Shown here: piece by piece, positions 7,158 to 44,300 of the stretch
Numbering within the stretch: position 1 is the first letter of the stretch
How the letters are laid out: the number at the start of each line of letters is the position of its first letter
DNA from: an uncultured Spartobacteria bacterium
GTDB lineage: Bacteria > Verrucomicrobiota > Verrucomicrobiia > Chthoniobacterales > JAATET01
DNA: 64,000 nt
Reading direction: 5' to 3'
Assembly (NCBI GenBank): GCA_938011325.1
Contig: CALLUD010000013.1
Location: 7,461 to 71,460, forward strand
Notes under the pieces: generated by a model
The model's input: only the letters and a program-made list of their open reading frames with translations
Database searches by the model: none
What the model was told of the DNA's origin: nothing
Made by a program: the position numbers and the translations under genes

Positions 7158-8046
7158 GCCGCTCGTCTGGCGCCGACTTCGCCGCAGCCCCGTTGCGTGG
7201 GTGTGCTTCATTCTTCTCGGGTTGATCGCGCTTGCCGCGTTCGTGATTCCTCCGCTCCTCCCGGCGTCCTATGCCCATACGAGCCCGCTTCAATATGCAC
7301 CTCCCTCGTGGCAGCACCCCTTCGGCACCGACCTCAATGGCCGCGACCTCTTCTATCGCGTGCTCACCGGCACCCGCGTCTCGCTGGTCGTTGGGCTATG
7401 CGGCGCATGCGTAAGTCTCTGCATCGGCACGGCCTACGGCCTGATCGCGGGCTATGCCGGCGGACGGGTCGACAACGTGATGATGCGGCTTGTGGACATT
7501 TTCTACTCGGTCCCCCGCCTCATCTTCGTGCTCATCCTCATCAACTCGTTCAACAGCGAGCTGCAGGACTTCGCAGCCGCGCGAGGCTGGCAGTGGCTGG
7601 TTGACTACTCGAGCATCGTCATTCTGATTCTCTCCCTCGGCATCATCGAATGGCTCACGATGGCGCGCATCGTGCGCGGTCAGGTCCTTTCCTTGAAAAC
7701 CCGCCAGTTCGTCACCGCCGCCCGTTCGCTCGGACAATCGCATTTTCTGATTCTCCTCCGGCATCTGCTGCCGAATTTGACCGGCGTGATCGTCATCTAC
7801 CTCACGCTGACCATTCCCGCGGTCATCATCGACGAATCGTTCCTCAGCTTTCTCGGCCTCGGGGTGCAGGCGCCTCAGGCCAGCCTGGGCTCGTTGCTTT
7901 CCGACGGCGCGAGCGCCATCAATCCCCTGCGAAACATCTGGTGGATGATCGTCTTTCCTGCGGCGGCAATGGCCACCACCCTGCTCGCGCTCAATTTCCT
8001 GGGCGACACCCTGCGTGACGCGCTGGACCCGAAGCGCGAGGACTGA
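7150..8046 (+). CDS. ABC peptide/nickel-type transporter permease (OppC/DppC family)
   Basis: 298 aa. Overlaps the upstream permease by 8 nt. Contains HPFGTDLNGRDLFYRV and FVTAARSLG, typical of OppC/DppC. Confidence 0.88.
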   Translation: MVEPLVWRRLRRSPVAWVCFILLGLIALAAFVIPPLLPASYAHTSPLQYAPPSWQHPFGTDLNGRDLFYRVLTGTRVSLVVGLCGACVSLCIGTAYGLIAGYAGGRVDNVMMRLVDIFYSVPRLIFVLILINSFNSELQDFAAARGWQWLVDYSSIVILILSLGIIEWLTMARIVRGQVLSLKTRQFVTAARSLGQSHFLILLRHLLPNLTGVIVIYLTLTIPAVIIDESFLSFLGLGVQAPQASLGSLLSDGASAINPLRNIWWMIVFPAAAMATTLLALNFLGDTLRDALDPKRED

Positions 8047-11547: not shown

Positions 11548-12573
11548 ATGCTTCCCGAGGAAGTCCGCCACATCAACGACACGCCGGACACGCCGTTCGA
11601 CATCTCATTGCGTCCCCCGCTCTTCGAGGAGTTCTCCGGCCAGGAGAAAACCGTCGAGCGGTTGAAGCTCATGGTCGAGGCGGCGCAGATGCGTGGCGAC
11701 GTGTTGCAGCACATCCTGCTGAGCGGCCCTCCCGGCCTTGGAAAGACGACACTGGCCTACATCATCGGAAATGCCGTCGGCGCGGAGGTCAAGACGACCA
11801 GCGGCCCCATGATCGAAAAAGCGGGCGACCTCGCCGGCCTGCTCACGAATCTCCAGCGTGGTGATGTGCTTTTCATCGACGAAATCCACCGTCTGCAGCC
11901 CGCGATCGAGGAATACCTCTACCCGGCGATGGAGGACTTCAAGGTCGACATCATGATCGACCAGGGCCCCAGCGCTCGCAGCGTCCGGTTGCACCTCGCG
12001 AAGTTCACGCTCGTCGGAGCAACCACCCGCAGCGGCATGATCAGCGCACCGTTGCGCTCCCGGTTCGGCATGAATTGCCGCCTCGACTACTATGCCGTCG
12101 ACGCCCTTGCTGCGATCGTGCAGCGAAGCGCGGGCATTCTCGACATCGAAATCGATCCGGAAGGCGCGATGGAAATTGCCCGCCGCTCGCGCGGAACTCC
12201 TCGCATCGCCAACAACTACCTCCGCTGGGTCCGCGACTACGCCCAGGTTCGCGCACAGGGAAACATCACCGCCGGGGTCGCGGCCGCCGCGCTCGCGATG
12301 CTCGACGTCGACGAGGACGGCTTCGACGAAATGGACAAGCGCATCATCGAGTGCCTGATCATGAAATTTGATGGGGGTCCGGTCGGCTTGAATGCACTCG
12401 CCGTCGCCGCGGGCGAGGAACCCGGCACCCTCGAGGAGGTCCACGAGCCGTATCTGATCATGCAGGGTTATCTGAAGCGAACCCCGCAGGGCCGCGTCGC
12501 CCTCACCCGTGCCTACCGCAAGCTCGGCCTCGACGCCCCCCAAAAAGCGCAGACCGAGCTGTTCTACGAATAG
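11548..12573 (+). CDS. ruvB: Holliday junction branch migration helicase RuvB
   Basis: 341 aa. Contains [33 protein letters not shown] and [16 protein letters not shown]. Confidence 0.95.
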
Positions 12574-12734
12574 GCCGCGCCACGGCCACCCGCGCGTCTT
12601 CTACTGCCGCCAAGATCCCGAATTGTCGCGTCCAGCTTTCGAAGGGCGATCGATTTTCCCAACCAAGTTCCTCCCTTTGAGGGTGTTGAATCCTTCAAGG
12701 GATTACCTTAATACCTGTCTCAGTTTTTGCATCG

Positions 12735-12899
12735 ATGAGACAGCATAGGGTTTGGATGTTGATCCCCCTCCTCTGGATCTTGACTGCCGCGTGGCACACA
12801 CGATCCCGAATTGTCGCCTCCGGCTTTCGAAGCGCGGTTGATTTTCTCTATCAAGTTCCTCCCTTTGAGGGTGTTGCATCCTTCAAGGGATTACTTTAA
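12735..12899 (+). other. Possible decoy or upstream ORF (54 codons) created by the duplication
   Basis: Starts MRQHRVWMLIPLLWI, differing from the start of the 12923 gene only at codon 4 (CAT His vs CAC His, synonymous). It then reads through copy 2 out of register to a TAA at 12897-12899. It is below the track length cutoff, and I have no evidence that it is expressed. Confidence 0.25.
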
Positions 12900-12902
12900 T
12901 AC

Positions 12903-12931
12903 CTGTCTCAGTTTTTGCATCGATGAGACAG
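12903..12931 (+). promoter_or_regulatory. Hairpin that sequesters the start codon (8-bp stem CTGTCTCA/TGAGACAG, 13-nt loop); an identical copy lies at 12715-12743
   Basis: A perfect inverted repeat read directly from the sequence. The TG of the ATG at 12923-12925 sits in the 3' arm. An imperfect 11-bp inverted repeat lies upstream (TCCCTTTGAGG at 12860-12870 and CCTTCAAGGGA at 12880-12890). Confidence 0.45.
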
Positions 12932-15511
12932 CACAGGGTTTGGATGTTGATCCCCCTCCTCTGGATCGTGGGGTCGAGCACTCAGGCGCAGCAGGCCTTT
13001 TACTGGAAGGGCTATGACAGTTGGGGGGCGGAAATTTTCGCCTGGGGAACAAGTCCCTACCCGTATGGAACAGCCCAGTTCAAATGGGGGTATGATTATT
13101 CCATCGCGGTCTTCGACGGAGGCTCGATCCGGAACATCCATGTCGTTGGGCCGGTCAATACAGGCGGAATCGTGTTTCAGAACGGCAGCTGGACGCTCTC
13201 GGGCGGTTCCCTGAGACTTGCGCCTTCCTCCGAAATCGACACGGGCACCGGGGCGGTGACGATTACCTCTGCGCTCACGGATGCCTCGCTCGTGAAGATC
13301 GGTGCCGGATCGCTCACGCTCAGCGGCACAAACACCTACACCGGCCCCACCGTCATCAACCAGGGCACGCTCCAGTTTGCAAAACGAAGCGCGCTCTACA
13401 ACGGCACCACGGCGAACTGGACCGCCGCGAATCTCATCGTCCATCCCGGCACGACGGCCGCGTTCCACATCGGGGGCGAGGGCGAGTTCACGGCCGCCGA
13501 TCTCAACCTCCTCAAGACCCTTGGCACCAATACGGGGGGATTCATGGACGGCGCCTCTCTCGGCCTCGATACCTCGAACGCCTCCGGCGGAAATTTCATC
13601 TACAACTCCTCCATCGGCAATTCGAACGGCGGCGCGAATACCCTCAATCTTGTGAAGCTGGGTTCCGGCACCCTCACCCTCGGCGCCGCAAACACCTACA
13701 CCGGCTCCACCACGATCAACCAGGGCACCCTCGCCATCGCCGCGAATGACCGTCTCCCCACCGCGACGGCGGTCTCCATCGCCTCCGGGGCCACCCTTGA
13801 TCTCGCGGGCTTTGACCAGACCGTCGGCTCCATCGCCGGTTCAGGCAGCATCACCCTGGGGTCCGGCTCGCTCTCCGTCGGCGGCAGCAACGCCTCCACC
13901 ACCTTCTCCGGCGTCATCTCGGGTTCCGGCTCCCTCATCAAGACCGGCTCCGGGACCCTTTCCCTCGGCGGCGTCAACGCCTACACCGGCCCCACCATTA
14001 TCAACCAGGGCAGGCTCACCACCACCTGGCATGAACGTCTCCCCGACTCGACCGCCGTCTTCATTGCCTCCGGGGCCACCTTCGATATCTCTTCCTACAA
14101 CGAAACCGTCGGCTCCATCGCCGGCGACGGCAGCATCAACATCTACGGTGGCGTGCTGACCGTCGGCGGCAACAACACCTCCACCACCTTCTCCGGCGTC
14201 ATCACCGGCACCGGATTCAACGGCGCCCTCACCAAGGTCGGCTCCGGCACCCTCACCCTCTCCGGCGCCAACACCTACAACGGCCCCCTCATCATCCACG
14301 CGGGCACGGTCGCCATGGGGGGCAATGACCGTCTCCATTCCTGGACCGATGTCACCGTCGCTTCCGGAGCCACCTTCGATCTCGCCGGATTCAATCAAAC
14401 CGTCGACGCCATCACCGGCTCGGGCAACATCACCCTGGGCTCCGGCTCCCTCACCGTCGGCTCCTTCATCAGCTACACCCCCTCCACCTTCACGTTCGAC
14501 GGTGTCCTTTCCGGTTCCGGTTCCCTCACCAAGACTGGACTCAGCACCCTCATCCTTGGCGGCGAAAACACCTACACAGGCTCCACCTTGATCAATCAGG
14601 GCACCCTCGCCATCGCCGGCAACGAACGCCTCTCCGACTCCACCAACGTCTCCCTAGGCTCCGGAGCCACCTTCAATCTCGCCGACTTCCACGAAACCGT
14701 CGGCTCCATCGCCGGTTCGGGCAGCATCGCCCTGGGCTCCGGTTCCCTCACCGCCGGCGGCAGCAACACCTCCACCACCTTCTCCGGCGTCATCTCCGGC
14801 TCCGGCTCCTTCACCAAGACCGGCTCCGGCACACTCACCCTCTCCGGCGAAAACACCTACAACGGCCCCACCCTTGTCAACGCGGGCACACTCCGCGTGG
14901 AGGGTTCGATCGTCGGCGCAACAACGGTCAATGCCGGCGGCACGCTGGCCGGAACCGGCTCGGTCGGCCCGGTGACCCTTGCCGCCGGAGGCACCATCTC
15001 GCCCGGAAACAGCCCCGGCACGCTGACGACCGGCTCGCAGACGTGGGAAGGCGGTGCGACCTACATCTGGGAACTCAGCCACGCCTCCGACTCAGATGAC
15101 GCAAAGGGCGTCACCTACGATTGGCTGAACATCTCCGGCACGCTCGACATCGCCGCGACTCCCGAAAACAAATTCATGATTTACGTCACCTCGCTCACCG
15201 AGGACCTCACCCCCGGCGCGACGTCCGGATTCACCCCCGGCCAGAGCTACACTTACATTCTCGTGACCGCCAGCGGCGGCATCACGAATTTCTCCGCCGC
15301 GAAGTTCCACATCGACACCAGCGCCTTCTTCACCGATCCGCCGGGCGACGGGCGTTTCGCGATCTCGCAGATCGGCAACAACCTCGTGCTCACCTACACC
15401 GCCGTTCCCGAGCCCGCGGCATGGAGCGTCCTGCTTTGCCTGGCGCTCGCCGGTCTGGCCCTGCTGCGTCGGAGAAGCGTGCGACGCCCGTCAGTCTCCC
15501 CTCGGTTGTGA
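12923..15511 (+). CDS. Autotransporter-associated beta-strand repeat protein with C-terminal PEP-CTERM sorting signal
   Basis: 862 aa. Signal peptide MRQHRVWMLIPLLWIVGSSTQAQQ. Repeated units of the form GSGTLTL-x-G-x-NTYTG-x-T-x-INQGTL. C-terminus VPEPAAWSVLLCLALAGLALLRRR matches a PEP motif, a TM helix and a basic tail. Confidence 0.9.
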   Translation: MRQHRVWMLIPLLWIVGSSTQAQQAFYWKGYDSWGAEIFAWGTSPYPYGTAQFKWGYDYSIAVFDGGSIRNIHVVGPVNTGGIVFQNGSWTLSGGSLRLAPSSEIDTGTGAVTITSALTDASLVKIGAGSLTLSGTNTYTGPTVINQGTLQFAKRSALYNGTTANWTAANLIVHPGTTAAFHIGGEGEFTAADLNLLKTLGTNTGGFMDGASLGLDTSNASGGNFIYNSSIGNSNGGANTLNLVKLGSGTLTLGAANTYTGSTTINQGTLAIAANDRLPTATAVSIASGATLDLAGFDQTVGSIAGSGSITLGSGSLSVGGSNASTTFSGVISGSGSLIKTGSGTLSLGGVNAYTGPTIINQGRLTTTWHERLPDSTAVFIASGATFDISSYNETVGSIAGDGSINIYGGVLTVGGNNTSTTFSGVITGTGFNGALTKVGSGTLTLSGANTYNGPLIIHAGTVAMGGNDRLHSWTDVTVASGATFDLAGFNQTVDAITGSGNITLGSGSLTVGSFISYTPSTFTFDGVLSGSGSLTKTGLSTLILGGENTYTGSTLINQGTLAIAGNERLSDSTNVSLGSGATFNLADFHETVGSIAGSGSIALGSGSLTAGGSNTSTTFSGVISGSGSFTKTGSGTLTLSGENTYNGPTLVNAGTLRVEGSIVGATTVNAGGTLAGTGSVGPVTLAAGGTISPGNSPGTLTTGSQTWEGGATYIWELSHASDSDDAKGVTYDWLNISGTLDIAATPENKFMIYVTSLTEDLTPGATSGFTPGQSYTYILVTASGGITNFSAAKFHIDTSAFFTDPPGDGRFAISQIGNNLVLTYTAVPEPAAWSVLLCLALAGLALLRRRSVRRPSVSPRL
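13290..14900 (+). repeat. In-frame coding repeats (about 80-95 aa units) of the beta-strand repeat family
   Basis: Near-identical nucleotide blocks occur, for example near 13818 and near 14703: GGCTCCATCGCCGGTTC.GGCAGCATC...ACCTCCACCACCTTCTCCGGCGTCATCTC. The boundaries are approximate. Confidence 0.7.
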
Positions 15512-15642
15512 CCGCCGGGGGCGGGCAATGACAGCCCGTGCAGAGACCCGCCGCAAGGCAGCCGGACCGCGGGGAGCTTTCCCGGAATTCCCGCGCCTCT
15601 TGACTTCCACCCGGCACGCGCGATGCTTTACGTGCAGTTCCG

Positions 15643-16326
15643 ATGATCCACGCCAATTGTCGTGCCCGGCTCACGGCGGACGATTTCGAGTTCATCGTCC
15701 GGTCCCTATCCCGCTCCCCCGAAAGCGCCGTTTCACTGCAGGAACTCCTGCTCGATCCTGAGACACGCGACCAGATTCTCGAACACGACGCCCTCGCCGC
15801 GGCGATCTTCGATTCGACGGACTCGCTGAAGATTTCCACTCCGCTGTATTTCTACGTGCTCTGCCGGCGCGTGCTGAAAAACACCTCCGTCTCGAGTCGC
15901 GACGCCGCCGATTACATCGCCGCGATGCTCGACGCGTTCATGCACACGAGCCGCGTGACGAATCCGCAGGTGGCGAGTCACGACGAGGAGATGCGCTATC
16001 TCTCCGACATTCTGCTGGCAATTCGCAATGCTCCGCCTCGCGAGGCATTTCTTCTACGGATTCATCTGGCGAACTACGCGTTGTTCCTCACCGGATTGTT
16101 CGCCGAAAACATCGACAAACGGGCCCGCCGCGGCGCGCCCGACATGTCGTTCTATGAAAACCTCGGCCGCGCGAGTTTCGGCGAAGCTTCCGAGCACCGG
16201 GAAGCCCGGAAGTTCGATTTGCAGCGGATCTTCCGCGAACTTGCCGATGGCTTTCGTGATGCGCGCCTCGCGCTGAACGACCTCGGCGAGCGGCTGCTCC
16301 ATTTCGAATCACCGGCGATGCCATGA
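15643..16326 (+). CDS. Hypothetical protein with no recognisable domain
   Basis: 227 aa ORF with coding-like codon usage, predicted helical and soluble. Its stop overlaps the start of the next gene (ATGA at 16323-16326). Confidence 0.65.
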   Translation: MIHANCRARLTADDFEFIVRSLSRSPESAVSLQELLLDPETRDQILEHDALAAAIFDSTDSLKISTPLYFYVLCRRVLKNTSVSSRDAADYIAAMLDAFMHTSRVTNPQVASHDEEMRYLSDILLAIRNAPPREAFLLRIHLANYALFLTGLFAENIDKRARRGAPDMSFYENLGRASFGEASEHREARKFDLQRIFRELADGFRDARLALNDLGERLLHFESPAMP

Positions 16327-17042
16327 GAACCCTGTTCAGCGAGATCCAGAGTCTCTTCGAACGAACCTACACGAGCGTGGGAATCAATCTGGAGGAATGC
16401 CTGGTCGACTCGCACCGCAGCCGCCAGCTCACGGCGCTCGCCGGCGCGCAGGCTCGCGAACTCGCCGAGACGGCACGCACCTTTCTTCGCACCACGGACG
16501 ATGGGTGTCTGCGCATCGGGATCTATTACTCACAATGGCTCATCGAGCAGCTCGAGCGACACGACCCCCGGGCCGGATTGAGCGACCACAACATTCGAGA
16601 GCTCATCGCGTTCGTCGAAGAGATCAACCACGCGCTGCATGCGGCGATTCAATTCCGCAACGGCATCGTGCCGGTGAACGACGAGAACTACGCGCGCAAT
16701 CTCGAGCTGCAGGCATCCGTCGACACGTATCTTGTGCTGACGCTCTTCATGGCGTTCTTTCGAAAACCGAAACCTCTCACCGCGTTCGATCGGAAGTGGC
16801 TGCGGTTTCATCTCTTCGAGTCGCGTAATCCAGATGACTACTCCGATCGGGAGCTCCGCGGTCGGTATCTCGAGACGACAGTCCTCGCCCGCAAATACAC
16901 GCGCTTCCTCGAATCGCTTTCCGCATCGCGCCGCGTCGAGGAGATTCGGCGTTTTCACGCCCTTTCCTACGTCGAAAAGAAGGAGCGCATTCTCGCACTC
17001 TGCGACAAACCGCCCGCGCAGAATTCATCGGCTTCCTCCTGA
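16323..17042 (+). CDS. Hypothetical protein with no recognisable domain
   Basis: 239 aa ORF coupled to the upstream gene by a 4-nt overlap. No motif I can name. Confidence 0.65.
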   Translation: MRTLFSEIQSLFERTYTSVGINLEECLVDSHRSRQLTALAGAQARELAETARTFLRTTDDGCLRIGIYYSQWLIEQLERHDPRAGLSDHNIRELIAFVEEINHALHAAIQFRNGIVPVNDENYARNLELQASVDTYLVLTLFMAFFRKPKPLTAFDRKWLRFHLFESRNPDDYSDRELRGRYLETTVLARKYTRFLESLSASRRVEEIRRFHALSYVEKKERILALCDKPPAQNSSASS

Positions 17043-34878: not shown

Positions 34879-35913
34879 TTAGTGCGGATACTGCGGCGCA
34901 GGCGGCACGGGAGGTGGCGGCGGCGGCGGAACCGGCTTCGGCTGCTTCGGACCCGGAGGCGGTTTCGGCGGTTTGCACTCGGGCTTGGGAGGTTTTGGCG
35001 GCTTCGGTGGCTTGGGAGGTTTCGGAGGCTCCGGCCGATCGTGATGCTGCCGCACCTGCGGAAGCGTGCGTTGATTCCCGCTCACCGCGGCCACCCTTCG
35101 GACATTGTTGGAAGGCACCTCCGCATCGGTGCGCAATGTCGCCTGGTTGGCCACGCTCGTGACCTGAAGCGTCGGATTCTTCCGCTTGCCCTTGAGCGCG
35201 TAGTTCACGTTGATGAGCTTGCCCTTGGCCTTGAGGATCCGCTGCTCGTTCACCGTCTGCATGATGAACGGCTGGTTGTTCAGCTGCGAAAACTCGCTGC
35301 TCATGAGCCCGGACGTTTTGATGAGACGTCCGACGTCCACCACCATCGGCGCTTCGGGAAACTTCTGCGCATTGGCCGGGATCGTGATCATCTGGCCCGC
35401 CTTCAGCAGCATCGACTCACCGAGCCGGCCTTTCAGGTTCAGGCGCATCGTGCCTTCGAGCACGATGAACTTGACGATTCCCTTGGCGCGGTCCGCCGCC
35501 TTGCGGAACTCGATCATGATCGTCGTTCCGGTCACGGCCGCCGTCACCGCCGCGGTATTGATCGTCGCGCCACCCGCATCCTTCGGCACCTCGAGGAGGA
35601 TCACGCCCTCGTCGAGATTCAGGTCCCGCGTGCCGTGGTCGAAGCTGAAGAGCGAGTTCGCGCCGAGGCGGGCAATGGTTGAATCGTTGAACGCGAGCTC
35701 GGCCCGGGACTTCACGCCGGTCTGCACCGCCGTGCGGCCGCTCACGCGATCACCAACTTTCGCCGGGATCTTCGAGCTTTCGCCGGGAAGGAGTTCGACA
35801 ATGTTATAGACACGAGTCACTTCCGCGCTTTGCAAGGGCCCGGCCGCACGACCGAGCAACGGAACCGCGAGCAGGACCGCGCCCGTCAGGGAGATCTTAC
35901 GCACCAATGTCAT
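34879..35913 (-). CDS. FecR-domain protein with a C-terminal proline-rich (PKPP) tail
   Basis: 344 aa with a signal peptide. FecR-like VGDRVSGRTAVQTGVKSRAELAFNDSTIARLGANSLFSF. The C-terminal 50 residues or so are PEPPKPPKPPKPPKPPKPECKPPKPPPGPKQPKPVPPPPPPPVPPAPQYPH. Confidence 0.8.
   Translation of the reverse strand: MTLVRKISLTGAVLLAVPLLGRAAGPLQSAEVTRVYNIVELLPGESSKIPAKVGDRVSGRTAVQTGVKSRAELAFNDSTIARLGANSLFSFDHGTRDLNLDEGVILLEVPKDAGGATINTAAVTAAVTGTTIMIEFRKAADRAKGIVKFIVLEGTMRLNLKGRLGESMLLKAGQMITIPANAQKFPEAPMVVDVGRLIKTSGLMSSEFSQLNNQPFIMQTVNEQRILKAKGKLINVNYALKGKRKNPTLQVTSVANQATLRTDAEVPSNNVRRVAAVSGNQRTLPQVRQHHDRPEPPKPPKPPKPPKPPKPECKPPKPPPGPKQPKPVPPPPPPPVPPAPQYPH
34882..35034 (-). repeat. Low-complexity proline/lysine repeat with 9-nt periodicity, encoding the FecR-protein tail
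   Basis: The plus-strand sequence reads GGCGGTTTCGGCGG..GGAGGTTTTGGCGGCTTCGGTGGCTTGGGAGGTTTCGGAGGCTCCGG, which gives repeated PKPP codon blocks on the minus strand. Confidence 0.8.
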
Positions 35914-42296: not shown

Positions 42297-44300
42297 TCAA
42301 AGAGTTCGGCCATTGCGATTTTTCCAAAAAACCAGCGCACCCAGTCCGAAGAAAAACAGCCCCAGCAAATGCGGTTCCGGCACGGCCACCACACGCAACA
42401 CCCCCGTCTCGAGCAGGGAAGACGTGTCCCAAGCCAGGCCGTCCTGAAGCGCGGGAAGATCGTAGTTCGAGAACTCTCCACTGGCCGAGCCGGACCAGTC
42501 GAAAAGATCAAATTCGTTTCCGGCCTTCGGAGTGAAGCCGCCGATCAAGTTGATTCGAAGCGTTCCACCCTCCAGTTGGAAGTCTCCCGAGATCGTCAAC
42601 TGATCGTAGTTCGCCAATCCGTTCAAATCGAACGCGATCGTGCCGGCATTGCCGAGTTCCAGCCCGCCGATTTGCAGCGCTCCGGTGAAGCCAACGCCCG
42701 CAACGGCCAGAGCGCCTCCCACGATTTCCAATTCACCGGTGCCGAGTGCCTGATTGCTTGCCGAAAGCGTTCCGGCCTCGAGCACGGTTCCTCCCGAGTA
42801 GGTGTTTGCTCCGGTGAGGGTCAACACTCCCGTTCCATTCTTCACCAGATTGCCTGTGCCGCTTATGGCGCCTGCATAAGTCCAGGGATTGGCACGGGAA
42901 ATCACGACGGTCGCGTTGTTCTCGATGTCTCCCGCGATCGAGCCACCCAAGCCGCCCTGTCCAATTTGGAGGGTGCCGCCCTCGACTTTGGTCAGGCCGG
43001 TGTAGGTGTTCTCTCCACTCAGCAGCAACCGGTAGTCGCCACGTTTCGTCAACCCTCCACTCCCCGAGATGCCTGCGTAATAGGAGTAGTCCATCTCCCG
43101 ATTGAAAATCAGCTCTCCATCGTTGATGACACTTCCATTCAGCCCTCCGAATCCCGCAATTTCGACCGCACCTTCGGCGATTGTCATCGTCCCCGTGCCA
43201 TACTTGCCATTCTTCATGACGAAGGTGCCGCTTCCCAATTTGGTGAAATCACCATTTCCTGAGATCCCGTTTTCGTAAACGAAGGTGCCTGAATGGTTCA
43301 CCACCAGGTGCGCTGAATTTATCACGCTTCCCGTGAGCGACGGCAATGAACCGCCGTTCCCGATCTGCAGGGTTCCTTCCTCGACGTAGAGCGTGCTGTC
43401 GATCTTCGCACCCAGCAACGTGAGTTTGTTTTCCCCTACTTTGGTAATCCTACCTCCGGCTCCGGTGACCGTGTTGGTGAAAACAATGTCGTCCGAGCGG
43501 TCAAAGACCAGATTGCCAGAGTTCTCGATCTTTCCCGTAATCCAGCCGGAAGATCCGCCATTTCCAATTTTAAGTGTGGCGTTACTGCCGATGGCCGTGC
43601 CTCCGGTGTGGGAAAGGTTGCCGGTGACGACTACGGTTCCGGTTCCCAACAACTGCACTTGGCCGGTGCCACTCACATTGCTGGCGAGGATGAAATTGTC
43701 ATTGTGGTTGAAGAGAAGGCTCCCGCTCGTCTTGCCAAATTCGATTGCTGCGGCGGAGAGCTTTCCCGACGGAAGCGGCTGCATACCGCTTCTCGCACCG
43801 ATCGTCAAAACGCCGGCATTCCCCACTCCGATTCCGGAAACGATGTGGATCGTTCCCTGCCCATCGCCGACGGACAATTCCCCGCCCGAGTGCAGGTAAA
43901 CATAGCCCTCACCGGATTCTCCGATCTCCAGCGAATCCGTATTCCACACACCTCCCACGTATACCGTGCCCTTCCCTCCCGACTCAGCTCCCAACACGGC
44001 GGATCCACTCTTCAGAGACCCTCCTTCGAGAATATAGACAGAGCCCGAATTGGCCGGGCCAATCATCAGGCTCTCGCCCGCATTCGCAGCAACTCTGCTT
44101 CCGATATTGGCACTCCCATTGCTGCCAATAATCGTGAGACTGGTGCTCTCATCGGGGACTCCGCCGCTCCAATTTTGCTCAGCATCCCACTGACCGCTCC
44201 CCGCGATCCATTGCGAAGTTGCGGCGAAAAGACTGCTCATCCCGGAAATCCACAGCACCGGAACGATAATACGCACCCGAGATGGGAGGACGTGAAGCAT
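42297..44300 (-). CDS. Autotransporter-associated beta-strand repeat protein with PEP-CTERM anchor
   Basis: 667 aa with a signal peptide. Repeats such as GTGVLTLTGANTYSGGTVLEAGTL and LLLSGENTYTGLTKVEGGTLQIG. C-terminus VAVPEPHLLGLFFFGLGALVFWKNR. It abuts the downstream LamG gene with no gap. Confidence 0.88.
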   Translation of the reverse strand: MLHVLPSRVRIIVPVLWISGMSSLFAATSQWIAGSGQWDAEQNWSGGVPDESTSLTIIGSNGSANIGSRVAANAGESLMIGPANSGSVYILEGGSLKSGSAVLGAESGGKGTVYVGGVWNTDSLEIGESGEGYVYLHSGGELSVGDGQGTIHIVSGIGVGNAGVLTIGARSGMQPLPSGKLSAAAIEFGKTSGSLLFNHNDNFILASNVSGTGQVQLLGTGTVVVTGNLSHTGGTAIGSNATLKIGNGGSSGWITGKIENSGNLVFDRSDDIVFTNTVTGAGGRITKVGENKLTLLGAKIDSTLYVEEGTLQIGNGGSLPSLTGSVINSAHLVVNHSGTFVYENGISGNGDFTKLGSGTFVMKNGKYGTGTMTIAEGAVEIAGFGGLNGSVINDGELIFNREMDYSYYAGISGSGGLTKRGDYRLLLSGENTYTGLTKVEGGTLQIGQGGLGGSIAGDIENNATVVISRANPWTYAGAISGTGNLVKNGTGVLTLTGANTYSGGTVLEAGTLSASNQALGTGELEIVGGALAVAGVGFTGALQIGGLELGNAGTIAFDLNGLANYDQLTISGDFQLEGGTLRINLIGGFTPKAGNEFDLFDWSGSASGEFSNYDLPALQDGLAWDTSSLLETGVLRVVAVPEPHLLGLFFFGLGALVFWKNRNGRTL

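Follow-up and report, generated by a model that had tools for sequence, protein, structure and literature searches.

Tandem leader upstream of a PATR-repeat, PEP-CTERM gene in an uncultured Spartobacteria bacterium: a probable scar of allele exchange between related lineages

Introduction

In homology-facilitated illegitimate recombination (HFIR), one homologous end is combined with one illegitimate end, the latter usually at 3–10 bp of microhomology and, in Escherichia coli cases, at 0–1 nt; it has been reported in Streptococcus pneumoniae, Acinetobacter baylyi, Pseudomonas stutzeri, and E. coli (PMC3240628). For the type VI secretion system loci of Vibrio, a natural counterpart in which orphans stay behind has been proposed (PMC5361080). 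The locus described here lies in a 64,000-nucleotide stretch of DNA (the window; positions 7,461–71,460 of contig CALLUD010000013.1, from an uncultured Spartobacteria bacterium), in which a 188-bp leader unit stands twice between ruvB and a gene for a secreted PATR-repeat protein with a PEP-CTERM tail. As judged from sequence comparison, this tandem leader is probably the scar of an allele exchange between two related Spartobacteria-like lineages, here termed A and B, and not a self-duplication; most likely it is a one-strain scar rather than a built-in regulatory device. Mechanisms of this class (joints of illegitimate or HFIR type, remnants of displacement, and introgression of surface-protein alleles) are already known, and the locus, so read, is a new natural instance in an uncultured verrucomicrobial lineage. 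To our knowledge, natural HFIR-type scars have rarely been documented outside model transformable bacteria.

The locus resembles HFIR in that the apparently exchanged segment is homologous on one side (a cassette shared by the two lineages, with lineage-A flanks beyond), whereas the other side is a novel joint of non-homologous positions with a very short overlap, and in that there is a net gain of donor sequence. It differs in that the overlap is 2 nt instead of the usual 3–10, in that the process is deduced from natural metagenome variants rather than experimentally observed, and in that the product resembles a tandem duplication, its 'foreign' piece being the same leader in a diverged allelic form. 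As in the displacement arrays of orphan immunity genes and of orphan Rhs and contact-dependent inhibition 3′ ends (PMC5361080), an incoming allele appears to take the locus with a remnant of the resident adjoining it, and clean homologous replacement is also seen at the locus in sister strains (here contigs L013 and L015). Unlike in those arrays, the remnant is a 5′ end (promoter or leader plus 15 codons) that lies upstream, not a 3′ orphan that lies downstream, and it is 188 bp long and one layer deep. Gene-specific sweeps and introgression of surface-protein alleles offer a third parallel: a 3.3-kb stretch is 96–98% identical between lineages whose flanks agree at about 80%, its edges are sharp, and the gene shows raised diversity within the lineage. 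The organisms here are uncultured, however, with no known selective agent or phenotype.

Structure of the Tandem Leader

The 188-bp unit occurs twice head to tail, at about 12592–12779 and about 12780–12967, and occupies the spacer between ruvB and the surface-protein gene together with the first 45 nt of that gene. A repeat search aligned 12611–12782 with 12799–12970 (172 nt, 92% identity, spacing 188), and Tandem Repeats Finder gave a period of 188, 1.9 copies, 93% matches, no indels, and a score of 631. The doubling of the leader and the first 15 codons, which a preliminary description of this DNA had put forward, is thereby confirmed. The two 166-bp copies (12614–12779 and 12802–12967), described there as differing at about 11 sites mostly in the 5′ third, carry exactly 11 mismatches, of which eight fall in 12630–12663 and three in the core (12689, 12707, and 12746). 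If indels of 8 nt and 1 nt are allowed, homology extends 5′ to about 12597/12784 (TCTT[CT/G]ACTGCCGC), and therefore the whole 188-bp unit is repeated. The two 115-bp cores, with their three differences, are 97% identical. Core strings of 30 nt and 17 nt are present at only two places in the 64 kb (expected by chance, 0.00 and 0.14, respectively), and the tandem repeat is real, far beyond chance. The preliminary description had also suggested a search for other copies of the core; none was found elsewhere in the 64-kb window, and the region upstream of a second PATR/PEP-CTERM gene in the window (see section The Surface-Protein Gene and Its Neighbors) is unrelated to it.

Relatives of the locus were gathered by exact-protein look-ups and by two collection scans with the invariant 30-mer of the core. 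All seven contigs from other samples that cross the whole spacer (L003, L004, and L011–L015) carry a single unit, and the spacer from ruvB to the gene measures 161–167 nt in these contigs versus 349 nt in the window. Lineage A is represented across the spacer by L003 and L004 (98.4–99.5% nucleotide identity to the window; one unit, 161 nt), and by three further contigs, L006, L007, and L008 (about 99% identity), that end inside the unit and leave the spacer incomplete. The five contigs with the lineage-B type of leader (L011–L015) have one unit and a spacer of 166–167 nt; L012 belongs to a metagenome-assembled genome named 'uncultured Spartobacteria bacterium'. Two units are found only in the window and in the contig JGI 3300002531 (56,472 nt), which is 100% identical to window positions 1915–58386, so that the window belongs to a different, longer record. 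A search for extra spacer-crossing contigs through the downstream neighbor that encodes a 227-aa protein yielded no new one among 21, most of which break inside the repeat-rich gene.

Two Alleles of One Leader

Alignment of the leaders reveals two 5′ types, of which type A (L003, L004, L006, L007, and L008) corresponds to unit 1 and type B (L011–L015) to the first 100 nt of unit 2. Unit 1 (12592–12779, plus strand) aligns as a lineage-A-type leader, with a 5′ part at 12592–12664 and a core at 12665–12734, followed by an ATG at 12735 and the first 15 codons of an A-type gene; it has no private mutations, each of its base states being found in some other allele. Unit 2 opens with 100 nt of B-type leader (12780–12879, plus strand) that are 100% identical to L011–L015, including the 'junction' string TTGACTGCCGCGTGGCACACAC, the 8-nt block GTGGCACA, and all eight substitutions. 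The remainder of unit 2 (12880–12967, plus strand) comprises the core, the ATG at 12923, and the first 15 codons of the real gene; it is an allele like that of L004 and L008, without the three B-specific core changes and without the 3-nt deletion that lineage B has just downstream. In lineage-B genomes, the B-type leader follows directly after their own ruvB stop codon. The three core differences between the units likewise separate L003, which has the unit 1 states, from L004, L008, and lineage B, which have the unit 2 states. Because the 5′-third differences and the junction stretch match the native leader of another lineage exactly, the two units are best read as two alleles, neither of which arose from the other in this genome.

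Probable Exchange Between Lineages A and B

Gene order is alike in the two lineages (ruvB, leader, PATR/PEP-CTERM gene, 227-aa open reading frame [ORF], 239-aa ORF). Sliding identities delimit a segment at about 12665–15935 (plus strand) that is common to A and B at 96–98%; it takes in the leader core and the gene and runs on for about 420 nt. Outside this segment, lineage-B contigs (L011, L012, and L014) are only 60–94% identical to the window through trmU, trpC, and ruvB, and 62–85% identical through the downstream ORFs and acrB. The right edge of the shared segment is sharp, at about 15935, inside the 227-aa ORF (about 98 codons in). The outer flanks of the window are 99–100% identical to L003 on both sides, that is, of lineage A; therefore the B-type piece would be an insert and not the product of a contig chimera. 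Within lineage A, the flanks are 99–100% identical and the gene 94.7–100%, which makes 12665–15935 the most variable stretch, and the PATR gene has many sites private to the window. This pattern of identities marks 12665–15935 as what looks like a recently exchanged cassette. Repeats common to both ends of the cassette, as a mobile element might leave, were sought, and none of at least 9 nt was found.

Contigs L013 and L015 combine lineage-A flanks (99–100%) with a tract of 100% lineage-B identity that runs from about 12280–12430, inside ruvB, to about 14100, and that covers the 3′ end of ruvB (with RuvB at 340 aa), the leader, and the PATR gene's 5′ half. By its identity profile, this tract represents B DNA that entered this locus independently, through clean homologous import, and because it stands beside the window's own import, A–B exchange would have taken place here more than once. 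One locus thus appears in two outcomes, clean homologous import in L013/L015 and import with an illegitimate end in the window.

L003 differs from the window in two patches, corresponding to window 12429–12600 and 15757–15906, with 93–95% identity, the remainder of its genome being 99.5–100% identical. These are probably further small recombination tracts, in the 3′ end of ruvB and in the 227-aa ORF.

The Novel Joint and a Model for Its Formation

The novel joint lies at 12779/12780 (plus strand), where, in the leader alignment, an A-type gene breaks off at the final base of codon 15 and a B-type leader begins. The window reads …CTCTGGATC followed by TTGACTGCCGCG…, the A parent (gene) reads …CTCTGGATC followed by GTGGGGTCG (a GTGGGG start), and the B parent (leader) reads …CACGCGTC followed by TTGACTGCCGCG, its leader start being TTGACTGCC. 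The joint falls exactly after codon 15 and joins non-homologous positions; the parents have only 'TC' in common there, or 4 of 5 positions if TCGTG/TCTTG is counted with its mismatch. It is seen in two contigs of different length, the window and JGI 3300002531. Downstream of it comes the 96–98% shared cassette and then, from about 15935, pure lineage-A flank that is 100% identical to L003, as expected of an HFIR anchor.

These features suggest the following course. The core and gene shared at 96–98% would offer the homology at which further exchange can take hold. In the strain of the window, an exchange would have been settled at one end by homologous recombination (in the shared gene or in the flank) and at the other by an illegitimate joint between A-type codon 15 (12779) and the B-type leader start (12780) with the 'TC' overlap, which is the layout of HFIR. 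The net outcome would be a gain of 188 bp, and the product would consist of an A-type leader with its start codon and 15 codons, all intact, then a complete B/A-mosaic leader and the real gene. With lineage-A sequence in both outer flanks and a B-type match that sets in at the joint, a single recombination event would be the simplest history, and because unit 1 has no private mutations, that event is likely to be recent. The recency posited in the preliminary description is borne out in this respect.

Several points weigh against this interpretation or leave it less specific. The 2-nt overlap is below the 3–10 bp typical of HFIR, although E. coli cases with 0–1 nt are on record (PMC3240628). 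Physical support for the joint consists of two assembled contigs, which possibly derive from the same underlying data. No sampled genome combines unit 2 with this allele of the gene, since unit 2 is of B type for 100 nt and then L004/L008-like; given this mosaic and the private sites of the gene, either the sampled genomes do not include the donor or part of the import was replaced in later conversions. Either polarity fits, a B-leader allele entering an A-type gene or an A-type ruvB–leader fragment entering an L013-like recipient, and for the RecA-dependent integration of linear DNA that HFIR involves, uptake by transformation, transduction, or conjugation is alike possible. A scan for the sigma-70 consensus gave no promoter match at threshold.

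If the scar formed in this way, expression of the real gene should persist, as the gene keeps its own complete leader. The extra unit can presumably be removed by RecA-type recombination between the 97%-identical 115-bp cores, and the product of such a collapse (A-type 5′ leader, core, and gene) would have the structure of the single-copy lineage-A strains. In all likelihood the tandem is neutral and will not persist for long. A bolder version of the exchange, which is unlikely, takes the window as a snapshot of allele replacement between species that is still in progress in an uncultured verrucomicrobial population. HFIR-type import would make the two-leader tandem, core–core recombination would then delete the foreign 5′ leader and the 15-codon remnant, and the resident 5′ leader would be left joined to the imported gene; this would account for the coincidence of the A/B cassette's left edge with the core start in single-copy strains. 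If this were so, the tandem would transiently provide two promoters and a translated upstream ORF (uORF), altering expression of a variable surface protein.

The vicinity of the joint also varies in a single-copy strain. In L004 (7180–7240, which includes the counterpart of window 12770–12780), one G is lost in CTCTGGATC; codon 14 of the signal peptide thereby becomes a TGA stop, and the gene caller places a new start at codon 16, an in-frame GTG. The frameshift is the loss of a single G within GG and does not lie in a repeat tract; a GATC overlaps the site, and the tandem joint is 3–4 nt away. Both L006 and L008, which come from sister runs of one accession series, end exactly at the base that L004 has lost, which suggests heterogeneity within the sample.

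Hairpins, the 54-Codon ORF, and Promoter Signals

Both inverted repeats that the preliminary description had assigned to each copy are present in unit 1 and again at +188 in unit 2. The imperfect one, TCCCTTTGAGG-N9-CCTTCAAGGGA, lies at 12672–12682 and 12692–12702 in unit 1, with its twin at 12860–12890 (plus strand). As RNA, the two copies fold at −15.8 and −16.7 kcal/mol (z = −2.7 and −3.4 against shuffles); the right arm varies between alleles, and the left arm has no compensating change. The perfect 8-bp repeat, CTGTCTCA-N13-TGAGACAG, encloses the ATG at 12735 (12715–12722 and 12736–12743, plus strand), and its twin at 12903–12931 (plus strand) encloses the real ATG at 12923. The ATG-enclosing hairpin folds at −10.5 kcal/mol (z = −3.1 against shuffles) and is invariant in 11 of 11 alleles, and hence covariation has no variants to show.

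The joint creates a 54-codon ORF (12735–12899, plus strand), so that the second intact start and the out-of-register reading frame of the preliminary description are both confirmed. The predicted product begins MRQHRVWMLIPLLWI, with 15 signal-peptide codons, and past codon 15 the ORF is an out-of-frame reading of the non-coding leader of unit 2. Its TAA stop (12897–12899) lies 23 nt upstream of the real ATG and 3 nt upstream of the 5′ arm of the hairpin (12903–12910). The 54-aa ORF has no record as a called gene in public gene collections.

A weak promoter candidate was noted by eye in the core, TTGAAT (12686–12691) and TAATAC (12709–12714) with a 17-nt spacer, and if it is real, it is carried by both units. 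A sigma-54 reading of TGGCAC in the B-type block was rejected by eye, as no TTGC occurs at the right spacing. A single terminator-like call, on the unit 2 hairpin, does not exceed the shuffle expectation. No match to Rfam 15 was found in the whole window at gathering score, and only chance-level matches (E of 0.57 or worse) were found in 12400–13200 when E values up to 10 were allowed; the leader does not belong to a known family of cis-regulatory RNA. Distant orthologs for covariation were sought with the N-terminal 129 aa as query, and no match was obtained; a full-length protein search likewise returned no intermediate orthologs, giving the protein's own cluster and then repeat-driven matches of at most 50% identity. 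With respect to phase variation, no short-unit tract is present in 12574–12970, and no recombinase was found among the neighbors of the locus (ruvB and unannotated ORFs).

A promoter within the unit would give two tandem promoters. Transcripts from the upstream one would carry a translatable 54-codon ORF that could couple to, or interfere with, initiation at the real gene, and a ribosome that terminates on this ORF could open the AUG hairpin or reinitiate. Any regulatory effect of this kind is probably incidental.

Alternative Explanations

One alternative, put forward in the preliminary description, is a tandem duplication in situ, by slippage or unequal crossing-over in one genome, whose copies then diverged. 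Two head-to-tail units with a 188-nt period and indel-free 166-bp copies are what such an event would leave. The idea fails, however, on the nature of the differences, as the eight substitutions, the 8-nt block, and the 1-nt indel by the joint (the TTGACTGCCGCGTGGCACACAC string) reproduce the native leader of L011–L015 exactly over 100 nt. The three core differences already segregate among single-copy strains, unduplicated lineage-A strains differ from the window by less than 1% in the flanks, leaving no time for 7–8% divergence, and later homologous conversion would be unable to reach within 3 nt of a joint that lacks homology on its left. Duplication in situ is therefore extremely improbable. 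A duplication could instead be old, ancestral to A and B, and repeatedly lost by core–core recombination in all other sampled strains, given that the cores are 97% identical and that collapse through them yields chimeric single leaders of the kind observed. That history is highly improbable, because it needs at least four to five independent losses, because in lineage-B genomes the B leader comes straight after the genome's own ruvB and no trace of a joint is seen, and because the left side of the joint is gene sequence of the type shared by A and B, with unit 1 undecayed. An artefact of assembly, in which an assembler or a chimeric read strung together two co-occurring strain variants, has more in its favor: the window is derived from a metagenome, A-type and B-type alleles coexist in public samples, the tandem occurs only in the contigs of one strain, and several Logan contigs break within this region. 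The older JGI record may have been produced by a merged multi-assembler pipeline. An artefact is nevertheless unlikely. The parents share 2 nt at the joint, and a k-mer graph or overlap merge needs reads that contain the joint; an overlap merge in the 115-bp core would yield one unit and not two; the lineage-A identity of both outer flanks argues against a simple end-to-end join of two genomes; and two contigs that differ in length both have the joint.

The last alternative is that the tandem is a selected regulatory device, acting as tandem promoters, as a uORF or leader peptide via the AUG hairpin, or as a copy-number switch via the 115-bp core. Both units keep the ATG, the AUG-enclosing hairpin, and the upstream hairpin with the z-scores given above, the uORF stop is spaced from the true AUG in a manner compatible with coupling, and the locus encodes a variable surface protein whose signal peptide is frameshifted in L004. 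In these respects the leader resembles systems of uORF or leader-peptide control and of start-sequestering hairpins, in which a short ORF ends just before the main AUG or the AUG lies in a hairpin. The doubling is absent, however, from all seven related contigs that cross the spacer, where the uORF is also missing; the frame of the uORF appears accidental, its body being out-of-frame leader DNA, and the hairpins belong to the ordinary single-copy leader instead of being products of the doubling. They match no Rfam family, the right arm of the upstream hairpin varies uncompensated, and the protein search gave no intermediate orthologs in which covariation might be seen. A selected device is thus decidedly unlikely, and the conserved uORF attenuator suggested in the preliminary description is not upheld. 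Of the recombination-prone switch also suggested there, a recombination-prone surface-protein locus stands and a programmed switch does not, in view of the single unit in the related contigs. Because relatives manage without the tandem, its significance as a regulatory element is small. If the tandem is the scar of an allele exchange, its value is modest: it would be a base-resolved natural example of the movement of surface-protein alleles between related uncultured lineages of Verrucomicrobia, and a caution that what looks in a metagenome contig like a 'tandem duplication with diverged copies' may consist of two joined alleles.

The Surface-Protein Gene and Its Neighbors

The gene downstream of the tandem leader (12923–15511, plus strand) encodes an 862-aa protein, predicted to be secreted, with six PATR repeats (PF12951/TIGR02601; Pfam, 1.3e-51; NCBIfam, 1.6e-52); no autotransporter beta-barrel domain was found by Pfam or NCBIfam. 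When the C-terminal 45 aa (VPEPAAWSVLLCLALAGLALLRRR) were scanned alone, PEP-CTERM (PF07589, which describes a C-terminal PEP motif, a hydrophobic helix, and a basic cluster) scored 25.1 bits against a cutoff of 20.7. The designation as a PEP-CTERM adhesin gene in the preliminary description thus holds for the PEP-CTERM tail, to which the PATR repeats can be added, whereas 'adhesin' is a label taken from family names. Close relatives of the protein are limited to a six-member cluster at 90% identity or more, the next homologs having at most 50% identity. The gene contains an internal array of 285-nt repeats (13664–14893; 4.2 copies, 72% matches), which probably accounts for the many breaks in the assembly of public contigs and might serve as a substrate for intragenic conversion.

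Upstream, ruvB (11548–12573, plus strand; NCBIfam RuvB equivalog, 3.8e-143; Pfam RuvB_N, lid, and C domains) appears native to lineage A, being 99–100% identical to L003 and L004 and 87.5% identical to lineage B. Directly 3′ of the PATR gene are two conserved ORFs of 227 and 239 aa (window 15643–17042, plus strand), for which Pfam and NCBIfam gave no match and whose synteny holds in both lineages; the 227-aa protein occurs in 76 blocks of the public collection.

Elsewhere in the window, a second PATR-repeat protein of 667 aa is encoded at 42297–44300 (minus strand) and has a PEP-CTERM-like tail, VAVPEPHLLGLFFFGLGALVFWKNRNG. A periodic repeat of 9, 18, and 27 nt (GGCTTCGGA-like) at 34961–35034 lies inside a long minus-strand ORF (34879–35913) and is probably a Gly-rich low-complexity stretch.

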